Below, piece by piece: positions 3,530 through 63,010 of a DNA stretch of 64,000 nucleotides; position 1 is the first letter of the stretch, and every line of letters starts with the position of its first letter. This DNA is from Mobula hypostoma (taxonomy: Eukaryota): contig NC_086107.1 of assembly GCF_963921235.1 (NCBI RefSeq), positions 104,658,001 to 104,722,000 on the forward strand, given 5' to 3'. Under the pieces are notes generated by a model. It was not told where the DNA came from. It was given only the letters and a program-made list of their open reading frames with translations, and made no database searches. The translations under genes were made by a program, and so were the position numbers.

Positions 3530-3969
3530 CCCCTCCCAACCATTGAGCACATCTACATGAAATGCTGCCCTAGAAAAGCAGCATCCATCCTCAAAGATCC
3601 TCACCACCCAGGCCATGCTGTTTTCTTGCTGCTGCCATCAGGTAGAGGTACAAGTGCCTCGGGACTCACACCAACAGTTACTGCCCGTCAGCCATCAGGC
3701 TCTTGAACAGAAGGGACTAACTATACTCATTCTATTTCTGGTGTTCCTACAACTGATAGTCTCACTTTAAGGACTCTTTATCTTGTTATTTCATCCTCTC
3801 GTTATTTATTGCTATTTATTTGTATATACATTTACACATTTGGTTGTCCTTTGATCCTGTTTACAGTTACCGTGCTATAGATTTGCTAAGTGTATTCATA
3901 GAAAAAGAATCTCAGCATTGTATGTGGTGACATTTGTGTACCCTGAAAATAAATTTTACTTCGAACTTC
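3530..3969 (+). mobile_element. Rex1/Babar-type LINE 3' fragment
   Basis: Decayed C-terminal coding (..ASILKDPHHPGHAVFLLLPSGR..) and a 3' UTR ending AATAAATTTTACTTCGAACTT, homologous to the 58586-61764 element. Confidence 0.8.
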
Positions 3970-7164: not shown

Positions 7165-7485
7165 TATTCGTTTTGTGCCATATTGTCAGATGTAGGCAGT
7201 CATGGTCTTTCCATGATCATGATGTTCTTGGCAAATTTTTGTACAGAGGTAGTTTGCCATTACCTTCTGGGCAGTGTCTTTACAAGATAGGTGATCCCAT
7301 CCATTTTCAGCTCTTCAGAGGGTGTCTGCCTGGTGTCAGTGATCGCATAACCAGGACTTGTGATGTGCACCAGATGGTCATACAACCATTCACCACTCTG
7401 ATCGAGGGGCTAAGCAGGTACCACAGCCGGGTGGAAGGAAAGAGTGCCTTACACCTTTTGGTAGAGACACATCTCCACTCTGCCA
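7165..7485 (-). mobile_element. Non-autonomous SINE-like element with an RTE-type GAAGGTAATGGCAAAC motif
   Basis: The minus strand contains GAAGGTAATGGCAAACTAC..TTTGCCAAGAA, resembling RTE/Bov-A-type elements. The family is assigned from recall only. Confidence 0.5.
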
Positions 7486-35717: not shown

Positions 35718-36058
35718 CAGTGGCCCCCACCCTCTGGGCCACCAATCGATACCGATCTGTGAAGCATGCAGGGGTCCAGTGGTAGCCGGGAGGTACACAG
35801 CACATATGAGAAAAAAGCCGAATCAAACATGCTAATTAATTAGGTGCCGCCCATAATTGTCGGCCCAGATCAGTGCCGATTTCCGATTGTGTAGTCTCTG
35901 ATCTGGGCCGACAATTACGTGTCGGGCGGCACCTAATTAATTAGCATGTTTATTTCGGCTTTTTTCTTAAAGATGTGCTGTGTGCCTCCCGGCTACCTTT
36001 GCATTCTCTGCGAATTGGTATCTGTCCATGGCTTGGGGGTTGGGGTGGTGGGACACTG
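35718..36058. mobile_element. Palindromic hAT MITE inside the Tigger
   Basis: Ends CAGTGGCCCCC.. and ..GGGACACTG. Near-perfect internal inverted arms of ~90 bp. Flanks GGGTGGTA and GGGTGTCA match at 6/8, consistent with a decayed 8 bp TSD. Confidence 0.75.
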
Positions 36059-37704: not shown

Positions 37705-37806
37705 AACACATACAAAATGCTGGAGGAACTCAGCAGACCAGGCAGCATCTATGGGGAGAAAAAAGTAACCAGTTGATGTTTCGGGCTGAGGCCCTTCATC
37801 AGGATT
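37705..37806 (-). mobile_element. Solo PLE 3' end (pLTR-like) with decayed hammerhead
   Basis: Homologous to 51136-51231. Minus strand reads AATC-CTGATGA-AGGGCCTCAGCCC-GAAAC-ATC-AACT. Confidence 0.85.
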
Positions 37807-38091
37807 GGATTTTCCCCCCCTCAGTCCCCACATGCTATCTTCTCCCTGCTGCCATCAGAGAGAAGGTACAGGAAGAAGCCACAGGACCTACACAACCAGG
37901 TTCAAGAATAAGTACTACCCTTCAACAATCAGGGGTCTAAAACAAAAGGAGATAACTTGGCTCAACTTCACTTGCCCTACCATTGAAACCAATGGAGTCA
38001 CTTTCAAGGACTCTTCATCTCATGTTCTTCATATTTATTGCTATTTATTTTTATTTAAATTTGCACAGTTTGTCTTCTGCACGCTGGTTGA

Positions 38092-38786
38092 ATATACTGC
38101 TTCCGGTGCTCCCGATGCGGCCTTCTATATATTGGTGCGACCCGACGCAGGCTGGGAGACCATTTTGCTGAACACCTGTGCTCTGTCCGCCAGAGAAAGC
38201 AGGATCTCCCAGTGGCCACACATTTTAATACCACGTCCCATTCCCATTCTACTATGTCTATCCATGGCCTCCTCTACTGTCAATATGAAGCCACACTCTG
38301 GTTGGAGGAACAACACCTTATATTCCGTCTGGGTAGCCTCCAACCTGATGGCATGAACATTGACTTTTCTAACTTCCGTTAATGCCCCACCTCCCCTTCG
38401 TACCCCATCCCTTATTTATTTATTTATAATTCCCCCCCCTCTTTTTTTCTCCCTCTGTCCCTCTCACTATAACTCTTTGCCTGCTCTCCATCCTCTGGGC
38501 TTCCCTCCCCCTTTCTTTCTCCCTAGGCCTCCCGTCCCATGATTCTCTCCCTTCTCCAGCCTCGTATCCCTTTTGCCAATCAACTTTCCAGCTCTTAGCT
38601 CCATCCCTCCTCCTCCTGTCTTATCCTATCATTTTGGATCTCCCCCTCCCCCTCCCACTTTCATATCTCTTACTATCTCTTCTTTCAGTTAGTCCTGACG
38701 AAGGATCTCAGCCCGAAACGTCGACTGTACCTCTTCCTATAGATGCTGCCTGGCCTGCTGCGTTCATCAGCAATTTTTATGTGTGT
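38092..38786 (+). mobile_element. Penelope-like element 3' fragment (GIY-YIG domain and 3' end)
   Basis: Reads IYCFRCSRCGLLYIGATRRRLGDHFAEHL, colinear with the 51136-53039 element. Pyrimidine-rich 3' UTR. Confidence 0.9.
38691..38726 (+). ncRNA. Minimal type I hammerhead ribozyme motif in PLE 3' end
   Basis: AGTC-CTGACGA-AGGATCTCAGCCC-GAAAC-GTC^GACT. Catalytic cores are intact, stem I is AGTC/GACT, stem III is the palindromic ACGT, and stem II has a mismatch. Confidence 0.75.
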
Positions 38787-43003: not shown

Positions 43004-44760
43004 TAGTGGTCACCAACCTTTTTAAGCCCAAGATCCCCTACCTCGACCTCAGTGAAAGGCAAGATCAACCTACTAATCGTTTAGAGAAAAAACAGCTCAG
43101 ATTGTACTTCCAATTTGAGGCCTTTTATTTGGGCGAATTGTAGTTGAATTACACAAAATACTTTTGTCAAACTTTCAAATTAATTCAAACAAGAAAACAC
43201 TGTAACTAGCATATTAAACAGGCCATAGCTGTCTTTCTTTAAGAATATTACAATACTTTACACCTTTAATTCTAAGTTTCATTATTTAATTTTATTTCAA
43301 CATCAAAAATAAATGAATAAAAATTAACTGTTGCACTCAGTGTGATGACTTGGGCTGAATACTTTCTGCTAGTTCCCTGAAATTTGGCTCATAACTACAG
43401 ACGTCCAGTCTGAGACAGTCTGTGAGGTGTAGGGTTGCCAACTGTCCCGTATTCCCCCCGCTAAGATAGAACGTTCCTATGAAACCTTTCGTGCTGAAAT
43501 GCTTTATGCCGAAGAAGCAATTACCATTAATTTATATGGAAAAAAATTTTGAGCGTTCCCAGACCCAAAAAAACCTGCCAAATCATACCAAATAACACAT
43601 AAAACCTACAATAACACTAACATATAGTAAAAGCAGGAATGATATGATAAATACACAGCCTATATAAAGTAGAAATAATGAAAATTAAGCCAAAACGGAT
43701 TCGTGGGGTAAAAAAAATCGGCACATACATGCATGCACACACAGGTGCCCGCGCAAGACTTCATGGTCGTGGTAGTCTTTCTCGGAGTAAACACAAATGT
43801 CCCGGGATTTGACTGCTACTTTTGTCCGTTATTTGGGAGTGAGAAAGTTGGCAACCCTAGTGAGCTGTCTGTCAGTACGTCAGCTCCTGTACTTAGATTT
43901 AATAATTTTCATCTGTGAAAATGCAATTTCACATAGATAAATAGACCCGAAGTAGGCACTGACTTTTAGCGGTATAAAACCAATGCGCACACCGCGCATT
44001 GCTCGGCCCCGTCAGTAGTAATTGCCACCAGTTTATGAATGGGGATGTCATTTTCACGGACATTTTTTTAAAACTCATTGTAAATATCCTCACCTCTCGT
44101 TCTTTCCTTTAATTGCAAAAGAGTGAGGAAGTCCTCCTTTGTTGTAAAATCCTGGAAAGCCATTCTGACAAATACAACAAGCTGACCTGTTTGCATTACA
44201 TCCAGGGATTCATCGAACTGTAGTGAAAAATATTCACGTCCTCTGGATATCACGAGTAATTGCCGATTGCGTCACCTCTGATCTGAGCCGACATTTACGT
44301 GCCGGGCAGCACCTAATTAATTAGCTTGTTTATTTCAGCTTTTTTTTTCTTAAAGGTGCATCCCAACTACCGCTGCACCACTGCATGCTTCGTGGCCTGG
44401 AGGTTGGGACCACTGCCGTATATTGATGTTTGCGACAGTCTGTACTCTTATCTGATTGGTCACTTTGATGCAGCACAGGCTACGCTGAAAATGCGGTACA
44501 TGGAGGGGGAACTACACACATGCGTACTGGGCAGAAAGAACGGAACTAAACCCCCGCAACCCGGAAACAATCTCTCTTTACAAACAGCTTTTTAGTGAAA
44601 ATATTGCTATATTACCATTATCCTAATTAGTATTACTTGCTTTTATAATGCTCATATTACAACAGTATTTGTGTATTTATTTTTGATTTTTCTTTGGGAT
44701 CTACTGGGAAAGTCTCGAAGGTCGACCAGTTGATCGCGATCAACGGCTTGGCGACCCCTA
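43004..44760 (-). mobile_element. hAT (Charlie/GTF2IRD2-EPM2AIP1-like) transposon, internally deleted, with nested elements
   Basis: Perfect 8 bp TSD CTCTAGAC at 42996-43003 and 44761-44768. TIRs TAGTGGTCACCAACC and GGCTTGGCGACCCCTA. Transposase remnants YFSLQFDESLDVMQTGQLVVFVRM..RGEDIY and FGSIYLCEIAFSQMKIIKSKYRS. Confidence 0.92.
43430..43859. mobile_element. hAT Blackjack-like MITE carrying a Tigger end fragment
   Basis: TIRs TAGGGTTGCCAACT and AGTTGGCAACCCTA. TSD GTGAGGTG / GTGAGCTG (7/8). Internal 43455-43680 is homologous to 35200-35430. Confidence 0.85.
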
Positions 44761-50700: not shown

Positions 50701-51135
50701 TGGGGTACCGCAAGGCTCAGTGCTGGGACCCCAGTTGTTTACAATATATATTGATGACTTAGATGAGGGAATTAAATGCAGCATCTCCAAGTTTGTGGAT
50801 GACACGAAGCTGGGCGGCAGTATTAGCTGTGAGGAGGATGCTAAGAGGATGCAGGGTGACTTGGATAGGTTAGGTGATTGGGCAAATTCATGGCAGATGC
50901 AATTTAATGTGGATAAATGTGAAGTTATCCACATTGGTGGCAAAAACAGGAAAACAGATTATTATCTGAATGGTGGCCGATTAGGAAAAGGGGAGGTGCA
51001 ACGAGACCTGGGTGTCATTGTACACCAGTCATTGAAAGTGGGCATGCAGGTACAGCAGGCGGTGAAAAAGGCGAATGGTATGCTGTCATTCATAGCAAGA
51101 GGATTCAAGTACAGGAGCAGGGAGGTACTACTGCA

Positions 51136-53039
51136 ACACACATCAAAGTTGCGGGTGAATGCAGCAGGCCAGGCAGCATCTCTAGGAAGAGGTACAGTCG
51201 ACGTTTCAGGCCGAGACCCTTCATCAGGACTAACTGAAGAAAGAGTTAGCAAGAGATTTAAAAGTGGGAGGGGGAGGGGAGATCCAAAATGATAGGAGAA
51301 GACAGGAGGGGGAGGGACGGAGCCAAGAGCTGGACAGATGATTGGCAAAAGGGATATGAAAGGATCATGGGACAGGAGGCCCAGGGAGAAGGAAAAGAGG
51401 GAGGGGGGGAAGCCCAGAGGATGGGCAAGGGGTATAGTCAGAGGGACAGAGGGAGAAAAAGGAAAAAGGAGAGTGAGAGAAAGAATGTGTGTATATAAAT
51501 AACAGATGGGGTACGAGGGGGAGGGGGGGCATTAGCGGAAGTTAGAGAAGTTGATGTTCATGCCATCAGGTTGGAAGCTACCCAGACGGAATATAAGGTG
51601 TTGTTCCTCCAACCTGAGTGTGGCTTCATCTTCACAGTAGAGGAGGCCGTGGATAGACGTGTCAGAATGGGATGTGGAATTAAAATGTGTGGCCACTGGG
51701 AGATCCTATTTTCTCTGGCGGACAGAGCGTAGGTGTTCAGCAAAACGATCTCCCAGTCTGTGTCGGGTCTCGCCAATATATAGAAGGCCACATCGGGAGC
51801 ACTGGACGCAATATATCACCCTAGCCGACTCACAGGTGAAGTGTTGCCTCACCTGGAAGGACTGTCTGGGGCCCTGAATGGTGGTAAGAGAGGAAGTGTA
51901 AGGGCATGTTTAGCACTTGTTCCGCTTACAAGGATAAGTGCCAGGAGGGAGATCAGTAGGGAGGGATGGGGGGGACACGAATGGACAAGGGAGCCGCGTA
52001 GGAAGCAATCCTTAGAGAAAGCGGTGGGGGGGGAGGGAAAGATGTGCTTAGTGGTGGGATCCCGTTAGAGGTGGCGGAAGTTACGGAGAATAATATGTTG
52101 GACCCGGAGGCTGGTGGGGTGGTAGGTGAGGACCAGGGGAACCCTGTTCCTAGTGGGGTGGCGGGAGGATGGAGTGAGAGCAGATGTGCGTGAAATGTGG
52201 GAGATGCATTTGAGAGCAGAGTTGATGGTGGAGGAAGGGAAGCCCCTTTCTTTAAAAAAGGAGGACATCTCCCTCGTCCTGGAATGAAAAGCCTCATCCT
52301 GAGAGCAGATGCGCGGAGACAGAGGAATTGCGAGAAGGGGATGGCATTTTTGCAAGAGATGGTGAGAAGAGGAATTGTCCAGATAACTGTGAGAGTCAGT
52401 GAGCTTATAGTAGACATCAGTAGATAAGCTATTTCCAGAGACAGAGACAGAAAGATCTAGAAAGGGGAGGGAGGTGTCGGAAATGGACCAGGTAAACTTG
52501 AGGGCAGGGTGAAAGTTGGAGGCAAAGTTAATAAAGTCAGCGAGCTCAGCATGCATGCAGGAAGCAGTGCCAATGCAGTTGTCGATGTAGCGAAGGAAAA
52601 GTGGGGGACAGATACTAGAATAGGTACGGAACATAGATTGTTCCACAAAGCCAACAAAAAGGCAGGCATAGCTTGGACCCATGCGGGTGCCCATAGCTAC
52701 ACCTTTAGTTTGGAGGAAGTGGGAGATGCCAAAGGAGAAATGATTAAGAGTAAGGACTAATTCCGCTAGATGGAGCAGAGTGGTGGTAGAGGGGAACTGA
52801 TTAGGTCTGGAATCCAAACGAAGCAGAGAGCTTTGAGACCTTCCTGATGGGGGATGGAAGTATTTCGGGACTGGACATCCATGGTGAAAATAAAGCGTTG
52901 GGGACCAGGGAACTTAAAATCATCGAAAAGTTTAAGAGTGTGAGAAGTGTCATAAACATAGGTAGGAAGGGATTGAATAAAGGGGGATAAAACTGTGTCG
53001 AGGTATGCAGAAACGAGTTCGTTGGGGCAGGAGCAAGCT
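51136..53039 (-). mobile_element. Penelope-like element (Neptune-type), 5'-truncated: RT, Cys-rich linker, GIY-YIG
   Basis: RT motifs KGVAMGTRMGPSYA, FLRYIDN (mutated YIDD) and LPFLD. Linker PGTYPCKRNKC*TC. Endonuclease FTCESARVIYCVQCSRCGLLYIGETRHRLGDRFAEH. Flanked by the duplication GAGGTACTACTGCA at 51122-51135 and 53040-53053. Confidence 0.95.
51196..51231 (-). ncRNA. Minimal type I hammerhead ribozyme motif in PLE 3' end
   Basis: Minus strand reads AGTC-CTGATGA-AGGGTCTCGGCCT-GAAAC-GTC^GACT. All core nucleotides are present, stem II is AGG/CCT and the cleavage triplet is GUC. Confidence 0.85.
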
Positions 53040-55677
53040 GAGGTACTACTGCAGTTGTACAAGTCCTTGGTGAGACCACACCTAGGGTATTGTGTGCAGT
53101 TTTGGTCCTCTAATCTGAGGAAAGACATTCTTGCCATAGAGGAAGTACAAAGAAGGTTCACCAGATTGATTCTTGGACTGGCAGGACTTTCAGATGATGA
53201 AAGACTGGATCGACTAGGCTTATACTCTCTGGAATTTAGAAGATTGAGGGGGGATCTGATTGAAATGTATAAAATTCTAAAGGGATTGGACAGGCTAGAT
53301 GCAGGAAGATTGTTCCGGATGTTGGGGAAGTCCAGAACGAGGAGTCACAGTTTGAAGATAAAGGGGAAGCCTTTTAGAACCGAGATAAGGCAAAACTTCT
53401 TCACACAGAGAGTGGTGAATCTGTGGAATTCTCTGCCACAGGAAACAGTTGGGGCCAATTCATAGGCTATATTTAAGAGGGAGTTAGATAAGACCCTTGT
53501 GGTTAAAGGGATCAGAGGGTATGGAGAAAAGGCAGGTACAGGGTTCTGAGTTGGATGATCAACCATGATCGTCCTGAATGGCGGTGCAGGATCAAAGGGC
53601 CGAATGGCCTACTGCTGCACCTATTTTCTATCTTTTTATGTTTTGTCATATGAACAAAGTCTCTTGAATTATTTAAGTTTTGTCTTCTGAGCTTTCAAAC
53701 TTAACTACTTCATATATTTTCTAGCTACATGATATAATTATTCATTTAGTGTGAGTAGTTTTGGAAATCACCAATGCATTCTACTTGGCTGTTTCCATTC
53801 CTGTGGAAGGAATTGAAGTAGGAACTGATTACTGTTTGCTTATTATAGTGCTGCACACAGTAGTAAAGCCTGAAGGCTCCAAATGGGAGCATCAATCTTG
53901 TGTTTTTGTGACTAGAGGTTAGGATAGTGCAAAGGAAGAATATCGATCAGCTGTCACAATATCTGTTATTTGTCCAATGTTGAATTTGAAGGACAGCTTG
54001 AGGTGCTTGGATATTTAATACTACTACAAATTTGTATCTATTTTAATGGCTTTTAATAATTATGTTGGATTGATTAACAATTAATTTTCAGTCAATTTGT
54101 TTTTTGCTATGTAAGTGTTTGGAATTCTAGAAGAACTATAATGTAAGGTAAGATCTGTGAGGTAAAGGTACCTGTTTGGAAAAAGAATATACATGAATAA
54201 GTACATTTGTATGACTAGTTTCCATCATGGATACGGTGCCGAGATAGTTAGTATAACTTGGCTTCCAGATGGGTTGTATATAGAACTAGAGCCTCACTGG
54301 CATTTTGCCATTTAACCAGCATTGTCACTTCAATTAATTTCTTTTCCAATCACTGAGACACAGTGTACACAATATTAAACTGTAGAGATTGGATGACTGG
54401 AATAGAATACATGCAGGGCTTTCGTACCTTTGTGGGTGATTAGGTTTTGTAAAACAGAAGTTTGACTTTGCCAAAGCTGAATGTGAAGTTAACTTCGTAT
54501 GTGATCCAACCTTTATAGTTTATGGTGTCCGTAACCTTGTTGTAGTCTGTCTGTCTCTCTGTCGGTCTGTCTTGTATCGCTCTATTTGACCCTGACCTGG
54601 ATTACTGGTTCCTTCCACTTGCATAGCATTTGATCATTTCTCTGTTATGCTCCCCCGCCCCCCCCCACTATTACCAATCCTGCCAACTGACCACTCTATG
54701 TAACCCCCTGCAATTTATTTGTTGATTTAAAAATATATCCTGATCTATGTAGTTGTTACCTACTTAAAAACACAGAATCTTAAACCATCTATAAACAATA
54801 TTTCATCCAAACTGCGCAGCTCGTTTCTTGGATCAAATCCAATTCATCTATTGCTCTTTGACCTTTGTTGACTTCCATTTAAGAAATATTTTAACACCAT
54901 GTTTTCAAGCCTTTTTCTGTCTCATTCTTTAATTTTCTAACCTTGTCTAGTCCTAAAGCACTCCAAGACCTTTACATACATCCTATTCTGGTCTCTTTCA
55001 TTTCGCTACATTTAATAATTCATCATTTGTGTCAGAGTTTTCTATTAAAGTTACATTTCTGTTGAAGTTGAAGTGATATTAAACAGATTCCTTCCTGAAT
55101 CTCTTAATCCCTTTCTCACTAAGATGATCTTTAAACACACCTTTTTATCTGAACTTATTACTTCTAATATCTTCTTACTTAACTTATTGTTAATGGTAAT
55201 GGAATCTGCAAAGCGGCTTGTGCCCTTTTCCAATGCTATGGTTATGGTGAAATCCCTATTCAAATTTCTAAGCATTTTCCATGGAATTTATACTAATTAA
55301 GCCGATGGTTATTGGAGATAAAGGATCTTAAGTCCCCTGATATTCCTTGGACATTAGTTTAAACCGAATGTCTTTTGCTGCTTCATCAAAAACTTCTTAC
55401 TCCCTCTACTATTTCTGGTTTAGTGGAGGGAATTGGGGTAATTTCCTCTTTACCACCGTTGTTTCTGTTGCAATCTGACATGCTACTTACATAGCTGTTC
55501 TGAGTGGCACTGATTCTGGTAGCATTATTCAGAACATTAGTCATTTCAATAGGGTGCTCCTAGCTAGCAGCCAGGAGAATTTTCTGTTTCATTGATGGTA
55601 ATGCGGTTAAGTTCCACTGTTAATCAATAGACAGGGTCTGAATTGAAAGAATTTTGCCACATCTATTTAAAACAATT

Positions 55678-61772: not shown

Positions 61773-63010
61773 TTTTTGAAGGGTAACAAAACATATTGTT
61801 TGGGGCAATGCAGTTAATGGCAGGGGCATGAACTCAGCAGGTCAGGCAGCATCTGTGGAGACAAAAGTATGGTCAGCACTTCAAGTTGAGAATGAGTCCT
61901 AATGCAGGATCTTGACCTGAAATAGCAATTACCTTTGCATTCCCTAATGCTGCCTGACCTGCTAAGTTCCTCCAGTAGCTTTTCTTTGGTCTAGAAAACA
62001 ACACATTCAGTTTCTGGTGTCTCTCTAAGGCTTTAATAAGGTCTGACATGGATACTGGTCCAAAAGATTAAAGCTCATGAGATATATGGCAAATGAGAAT
62101 CAAAATTGGCTTGGTCATTGAAGACAAAGGTGGAATGTTGTTTCTTTGATTGGAAGATTGACTCTTGGGATCAGTGCTATTTGACATGTATGGAAGACAT
62201 ATGAATAGCAAGTTTGCAGAAGACATTAAAATTGGTATTATTGATAAATGAGGATAGTTGTGGGCGAGAAGATGTTGAGCAGGTGGTAAAATGGGCAGCT
62301 GGGGTTTGAAAAATGTGAGGTGATACACTGTGAGAGGAGTAATAAAGATGTATGAGACAAGGTGGTGGTGATTTAGGGAGTATTGAGCAACAGGGAGACT
62401 TGGTGTACGAGTCTAAAGATCTCTGAAAATAACAGCATAGGTAGATGAGGTGAAGAAAGCAAATAGGCCTATTCACCTTCATTGGTCAGGGCACAAAATA
62501 CAGGTGGTTATAGTACCTCTTTATAACATTGGTTTGGTTGCATCTAAAGTACCACGTACCGTTCTGATTGCCACTATGTCGGAAGAATTCAATTGCACTG
62601 AGGTATATGAGGATTTTGCTTGGGATGGAATGTCTTATTTACGAGGAAAGACTGGATGGACTGCTTTTGTTTTTCTTGGAGCGGAGTTGGCTGTGCTGCA
62701 CCTGATGAAATTGCAGTTAAAGTAGATGGGAGGAAACTTTTCCCCACGGCAGAGCTAACTAAAACTAGAGGAGACAGATTTAGAAGGGATTTGAAGAACT
62801 CTTTTCATTCCGAGAGTAGCTGGAATCTGGTGTGCACTGCCAGATGGGTAGTCAAAGGAAGGTACTTTCAGCATATTATAGCATCTGGACAAGAGCTTAA
62901 ATAGCCAAGGTATAGAAGGCTACAAATTCAGTGCTTGTAAATGGTATTAGTATAGATAGGCATTTGATTGGTGGGGTGAAGAACCTGTTTTGATACTACA
63001 TGACTCGGAC
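61773..63010 (+). mobile_element. Old degenerate CR1 RT and 3' end (continues from ~58540-58577)
   Basis: Recognisable CR1 motifs (AGCAAGTTTGCAGAAGACATTAAAATTGG, GGTGAAGAAAGCAAAT) and a decayed 3' end. Confidence 0.7.
61830..61990. repeat. Fold-back element made of two inverted PLE 3' ends
   Basis: GAACTCAGCAGGTCAGGCAGCAT (61830-61852) and ATGCTGCCTGACCTGCTAAGTTC (61947-61969) are a 22/23 inverted match, with a decayed hammerhead between them. Confidence 0.8.

Follow-up and report, generated by a model that had tools for sequence, protein, structure and literature searches.

The locus examined here raises the question of whether a small ribozyme motif carried by a mobile element still acts as a ribozyme and, if so, what it does for the element and for the host genome. 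In the window, i.e., the whole 64,000-nt stretch of Mobula hypostoma DNA that was analyzed, the initial annotation had placed an intact minimal hammerhead at 51196..51231, ~60 nt from the 3' end of a Neptune-type Penelope-like element (PLE). Sequence reading and pattern search bore out the letters, strand and distance: on the minus strand the motif reads AGUC, CUGAUGA, a 13-nt stem II region that opens with an extra A, GAAAC, GUC, and GACU, and it lies 60 nt from the 3' end of the element at 51136. Helix I has 4 bp (AGUC/GACU) plus a U-G pair, the stem-loop II that follows the extra A is 12 nt long, and stem II opens with G10.1-U11.1. From A15.1 to U16.1 the sequence is ACGU, i.e., the very short palindromic stem III described initially, which replaces helix III and has no loop; cleavage after the GUC triplet is predicted between 51200 and 51199. 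The CUGANGA and GAAA boxes and an NUH triplet thus occur in type I order, the additional base that separates position 9 from 10.1 is an A (one is also present in 15 of the 19 sense motifs of relatives described below), and motifs of this family occupy the pseudo-LTR on the sense strand, at both ends of tandem elements. This anatomy fits the published descriptor, and it is nearly certain that 51196-51231 is a minimal type I hammerhead of PLE pseudo-LTRs, the class of Cervera and de la Pena (2014). The word "intact" applies to the cores and the palindrome, but the G10.1-C11.1 pair, listed as highly conserved by these authors (PMC4209133) though outside the published search descriptor, is a G-U wobble here, and the 36-mer folded no better than its shuffles (z = -0.09).

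A loose core pattern matched the window five times against 1.07 expected, a count that none of 100 shuffles reached, and three of the five matches are the motif copies at 51196, 38691, and 37771. The search with Rfam hammerhead models that had been proposed as a check was unsuccessful: Rfam 15 gave three unrelated matches and no hammerhead match in the window at E <= 1, likely because helix III is absent from the motif. A weak and probably spurious Rfam match to mir-2329 arises from a MITE-like fold-back element with 44-nt arms at 35809-35967, of which a second, partial copy lies at 44259-44348.

Comparison with copies elsewhere in the genome showed that the motif sits in a 5'-truncated, broken Neptune-type PLE on the minus strand (51136..53039), ~91% identical to long-ORF copies. 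The insertion lies inside a CR1 LINE, between the left (51122..51135) and right (53040..53053) copies of a 14-bp target-site duplication (plus strand); many other CR1 fragments occur in the window. The element comprises, all on the minus strand, a remnant of the PLE reverse transcriptase (RT) and thumb with frameshifts and stops in its translated frames (52065..53039), a CX4CxxC linker zinc-finger motif (as defined in PMC8557442) that a stop codon interrupts here (51904..51930), a GIY-YIG endonuclease remnant with CCHH residues (51532..51835), a pyrimidine-rich 3' UTR, or pseudo-LTR (51232..51531), the hammerhead, and a conserved 3' tail (51136..51195). Copy comparison showed that the tail stops at the first and shorter of two 3' ends used by the family, the second lying ~37 nt beyond it in other copies. 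Pfam searches of the broken window fragments returned nothing for the three PLE frames and RVT_1 for the CR1 frame, and, for the endonuclease, an intact relative matched PF01541 weakly (E 0.001, below the curated cut-off). Within this damaged insertion, the motif copy at 51196-51231 is probably an inert passenger.

Among 150 listed matches found by similarity to the 51136-53039 copy, 20 loci were picked for their long open frames, and four of these (L091-L094) carry single ORFs of 1,022-1,169 codons that encode RT followed by GIY-YIG with CCHH residues and end after the endonuclease, the Pfam RVT_1 and GIY-YIG matches both falling below curated cut-offs. Three of the 20 are partial tandems with two sense motifs of the 51196 family spaced 3,515-3,710 nt apart. 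The layout of a source element is motif, tail, one ORF of ~1,000 residues, 3' UTR, and motif again, so that one transcript can hold two motifs ~3.5 kb apart, and the likely start codon lies ~135 nt past the predicted cut. Head-to-head inversions are frequent in the family; partial tandems, inverted truncated copies and an optional 30-40 bp tail, the marks of a PLE, were all found. The nearest database proteins are from bamboo shark (66-70% identity), with further assemblies at 50-56%; taken by themselves, the shark matches point to a cartilaginous fish as the likely host.

A CX2-5CxxC linker between RT and endonuclease is common to the Neptune and Nematis clades, and Neptune itself is paraphyletic according to Craig et al. 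(2021; PMC8557442). Between CxxC and the cysteine that follows, two Neptune rows of that paper's supplement have 25-27 residues and three Nematis rows have 7; the count is 23 here, and the RT motifs are, by eye, near-identical to those of Neptune1_Ap over long stretches. These comparisons support a host element closer to Neptune than to Nematis, in agreement with the initial assignment, the clade call being a by-eye reading against two or three supplement rows per clade. Like Neptune1_Ap and Neptune1_Nv, the element has a C-terminal GIY-YIG with CCHH and the CX2-5CxxC linker, and it shares with Neptune PLEs the optional 30-40 bp tail and the inverted truncated copies; it differs in being a distinct family and, at 51136-53039, in an insertion without a (TA)n target.

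Two other copies in the window had been reported, and both are present. The copy at 38691..38726 (plus strand) has intact cores and keeps G10.1-C11.1, but its stem II is down to 2 bp; it lies in a shorter, older copy of the same PLE family, 83% identical, that consists of the endonuclease end and 3' UTR (38092..38786, plus strand). Sequence comparison showed that the decayed copy at 37771..37806 (minus strand) keeps both core boxes and has lost the palindrome and helix I; the fragment that holds it (37705-37809, ~105 nt) comes from another PLE family than the one to which the 51196 and 38691 copies belong. A decayed head-to-head pair of PLE tails with no intact motif occurs at 61817-61988, and the window together with 190 kb around it holds 48 PLE tail-like matches in 254 kb, from about three families, 16 of them with intact core boxes. 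Genome-wide, a core-only pattern with a 13-nt spacer gave 88,531 matches, as against 35 for a reversed control, and a 32-nt family pattern gave 49,263 matches in the 3.48-Gb genome and none for its control.

Is the motif conserved beyond what common descent of the copies would give? The initial annotation had proposed conservation of the core relative to its flanks across PLE subfamilies as a test, and between families the motif is the more conserved part: among three families in the genome, 32-33 of 36 motif bases are common, compared with 7-12 of the 30 bases on its upstream side and 4-5 of the 14 on its downstream side (an ungapped comparison of one natural copy per family, in which indels lower the flank figures). 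At the subfamily level, no change is seen in the palindrome or in any of the 12 core positions, while neighboring positions vary. Constraint extends beyond the motif, the downstream tail being conserved between families as well. In contigs of four other organisms, matching to divergent relatives ends at 51231 and 51194, i.e., at the motif edges, and the core varies at >=5% only at CpG positions. Furthermore, a descriptor that did not require a helix III palindrome found 19 sense and two antisense motifs in 258,743 bases from 80 metagenome loci that hold related elements, as against 0-1 in each of 20 shuffles; nevertheless, 15 of the 19 sense motifs are palindromic at helix III, with differing words that include ACGU, AUAU, AAUU, and AGCU. 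Among distinct 2-nt inserts, 10 of 12 are palindromic (nominal p 4e-5, for relatives that are not independent). Of 55 metagenome loci entered into a check of the 700 nt downstream of the endonuclease, six were dropped as too short, 11 of the remaining 49 had a motif, and 38 had none within that distance. One metagenome relative carries a U3-A8 core variant in both pseudo-LTRs (L277:400-435 and 3824-3859), as reported for Schistosoma elements. The motif is clearly conserved at the lineage level, and the helix III palindrome of distant relatives changes in step.

Dispersed copies tell a different story. A tail-anchored sample (the first 100 of 90,828 matches) yielded 92 distinct copies, every one of them within the initial 3.3 Mb of a single contig; 50 of the copies reach past -62 from the cut. 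In these 50, the 12 core positions had 8 changes in 600 and 24 upstream positions had 15 in 1200 (p = 1.0, four subfamily-diagnostic columns being left out of the count), and six of the eight core changes were at CpG. Dispersed copies thus appear to decay neutrally, with no selection on the core seen in 50 copies, a sample small and young enough that only a large selection effect would show.

Position 11.1 departs from what is usual in the class. U11.1 is found at 51196-51231 and in all 20 long-ORF copies (themselves selected by similarity to the 51136-53039 copy), and it turns the conserved G10.1-C11.1 pair into a G-U wobble. The C11.1 form has 20,357 genome matches, by a stricter pattern than the one that gave 88,531, and in contigs of four other organisms it predominates in three and makes up about half in the remaining one. 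Compared with an intact-ORF copy that is itself U-type, U-type copies show 93-100% identity (n = 17) and C-type copies 90-96% (n = 5). U11.1 is a derived wobble within the class, and its presence in every long-ORF copy, with C11.1 elsewhere, suggests that the youngest lineage may have a relaxed ribozyme. Mere CpG decay as a general explanation of U11.1 was ruled out by those same 20 of 20 copies. In the predicted monomer, core bases pair with the cut site in a fold 2.2 kcal/mol below the open form, and the active dimer is predicted to be 15 kcal/mol less stable than a mispaired one; since relatives show similar gaps, the dimer energies, from a model that ignores core contacts, do not separate the 51196-51231 motif from them.

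If cleavage defined the template for new insertions, copies should begin at the cut. We found 388 exact tail-to-ORF junctions and examined 30 of these ORF-start copies: 22 have their start upstream of the cut and 8 downstream of it, and not one begins at the cut itself. Similarly, only 2 of the 92 tail-anchored copies start there. The copy ends therefore speak against a usual template whose 5' end is set by the cut, and the idea that this lineage processes its RNA by self-cleavage was not borne out, since copy ends do not mark the cut and the long-ORF subfamily has lost the G10.1-C11.1 pair. An excess of junctions at the cut (322, vs. 124 two bases downstream) would fit some cutting in vivo, but inversions that use helix I microhomology account for most of the junctions there. 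By script, 7 of 30 junctions in each set were simple; by eye, true simple truncations numbered 4 (at the cut) and 5 (2 nt downstream), the other script-simple junctions being inversions or deletions with helix I microhomology. The eye-checked counts scale to roughly 43 vs. 21, and we set this footprint aside as evidence because it is too uncertain.

What the copies do mark is the 5' edge of the hammerhead. Of the 92 copies, 40 begin at -55 to 0, 26 of these at -36 to -22, and seven begin at -100 to -56, in a tally where inversion arms are not independent. The accumulation involves copy 5' ends as well as inversion junctions and falls at the equivalent of 51221-51235, with 26 of 92 copies within 15 nt. 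A transcript start at this edge, combined with priming in the upstream pseudo-LTR, would explain the pile-up, as would an RT stop. At -36 to -34 lie what we take to be an initiator-like word and a 3' splice-site-like stretch. Immediately before helix I, on the minus strand at 51234-51255, come a branch-point-like word, then a tract of pyrimidines and a CAG; such a tract and CAG also occur in the other two families. A splice acceptor at this edge was considered and rejected: among 30 loci (20 inversions, 10 simple, 5 with target duplication) none joins an upstream element exon, and a listing of junctions sampled at about -36 to -34 showed no single-base spike. Since PLEs retain introns, the lack of spliced copies among these 30 does not speak against splicing. 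In D. virilis Penelope, an intron ends at helix I (PMC4209133) and the promoter is internal (PMC2377424).

Taken as a whole, these observations are probably best explained by a hammerhead that belongs to an abundant Neptune-type PLE, cuts slowly as a pair, leaves most templates uncut, and is inert as a lone copy. In a single motif, GA(C/U)G would pair with CGUC and so conceal the cut site, while the two ACGU palindromes of one source transcript could pair into a double hammerhead that cuts slowly at GUC, probably with help from the element's own protein. Cutting would then be a side or late step, i.e., trimming, turnover or occasional circle formation, and most new copies would have uncut RNA as their template, with priming at two internal sites that lie ~65 and ~100 nt beyond the cut. 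The motif would be kept by selection in source elements and not in dispersed copies, and the lone copy at 51196-51231 would have no role.

Three other explanations were weighed against this one. We regard it as unlikely that the motif, though it descends from genuine hammerheads and is one itself, has negligible catalysis in the present youngest subfamily and is kept as a protein-binding or folding signal near the RT starts, or by inertia. The fixed G10.1-U11.1 of the long-ORF copies and the lower count of the C11.1 form (with the difference in pattern noted above) point that way, as does the tandem L096, in which both pseudo-LTRs (3826-3870 and 7341-7385) carry two private changes, one of which breaks the palindrome, as if a defective motif had been copied; moreover, one of nine Xenopus retrozyme dimers cleaved in vitro (preprint 10.64898/2026.07.22.740005). 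However, the core and palindrome are unchanged at the subfamily level amid varying neighbors, a G-U wobble keeps the pairing, and the change in L096 falls on a CpG and may stem from subsequent gene conversion. Quite improbable, in our estimation, is an obligatory cycle of cutting and re-ligation, proposed in PMC4209133, in which two motifs excise a unit-length RNA that circularizes, and reverse transcription round the circle makes partial tandems. With a template of this kind, copies could likewise extend through the upstream motif, and the model accords with the near-identical pseudo-LTR pairs of L092 (231/235) and L096 (233/235) and with the existence of a 310-nt array (L231, below). But the pseudo-LTRs of L109 are of two different subfamilies (221/235), which is impossible from one circle, and in anole Poseidon the insertion of catalytic mutants was normal in vitro and the cut did not coincide with the end of any RNA-seq read (PMC11167929).

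That dispersed copies act on the host, with selection for or against an intact core, we consider very improbable indeed. Very high copy number makes it likely that two same-strand copies fall within one long intron, and Xenopus retrozymes are depleted from introns (10.64898/2026.07.22.740005). Against this stand the equal decay of core and flank in the 50 copies, the even split of the 88,531 core matches over both genome strands (44,157 and 44,374, not gene-oriented), and the behavior of the class, monomers of which did not cleave in vitro while dimers did so at a low and slow rate (PMC4209133). The initial suggestion that dispersed copies could cut host pre-mRNA or pair in trans found no support: the motif here is a lone one, monomers of its class did not cleave, and core and flank decay equally.

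We also offer a more novel reading, which is rather unlikely. Transcription may start at the 5' edge of the hammerhead, so that RT primed in the upstream pseudo-LTR runs off and mass-produces ribozyme-only insertions of 100-140 nt; the same start would seed retrozyme arrays of the 310-nt type, and the newest, most successful subfamily would have amplified after weakening G10.1-C11.1. If this were true, the genome would offer a natural test of how far Penelope elements depend on the hammerhead, whose role is still open according to PMC8557442. In any case the family is a convenient test bed, with intact ORFs, hundreds of ORF-start copies, ~9 x 10^4 copies of the motif, and a matched pair of subfamilies, U11.1 and C11.1. 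We found no paper devoted to PLE hammerheads of cartilaginous fish; one such genome is included in the preprint cited above, the supplements of which may cover this family.

The array just mentioned (G000:C2, ~157.8165-157.8178 Mb, minus strand) invites comparison with the non-LTR retrozymes of animals, for which that preprint gives an average of 363 bp in its one cartilaginous fish. It consists of just over four tandem 310-nt units, made of PLE sequence and lying between a 12-bp target duplication, each with the motif from -34, the tail and the start of the ORF. Variants alternate between the units, which would suggest later duplication. Like those retrozymes, it is a set of tandem non-coding units with a hammerhead in each, whereas 51196-51231 is a single motif in a coding element.

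The locus adds no new class; the pairing of hammerheads with PLEs has been known since 2014, when minimal hammerheads were reported in PLE pseudo-LTRs, those of fish Neptune included (PMC4209133). The motif resembles the minimal hammerheads of that account in being type I with no helix III loop, a palindromic 15.2-16.2, an extra nucleotide between 9 and 10.1 and a helix I of 4-5 bp, and in occurring in both pseudo-LTRs, mostly as single dispersed copies, with nearby copies on opposite strands. It differs in its short stem II (4 bp with two wobbles, vs. 7-8 bp in Schistosoma), in the G10.1-U11.1 of the dominant subfamily, and in number: 88,531 is ~10 times the maximum given there (9,000, in Xenopus tropicalis), for search patterns and genome sizes that differ. 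Another close parallel is green anole Poseidon, the hammerhead of which cut only with protein present, while insertion in vitro did not require it (Frangieh et al., 2024; PMC11167929). Poseidon is of a different clade and has its start codon inside the ribozyme, not past the cut as is likely here, and its activity was measured. Both elements nevertheless have a hammerhead near the ORF start, copies that apparently derive from uncut RNA, and two 3' ends separated by a tail, and the two 3' ends of the present family match Poseidon's two RT start sites.
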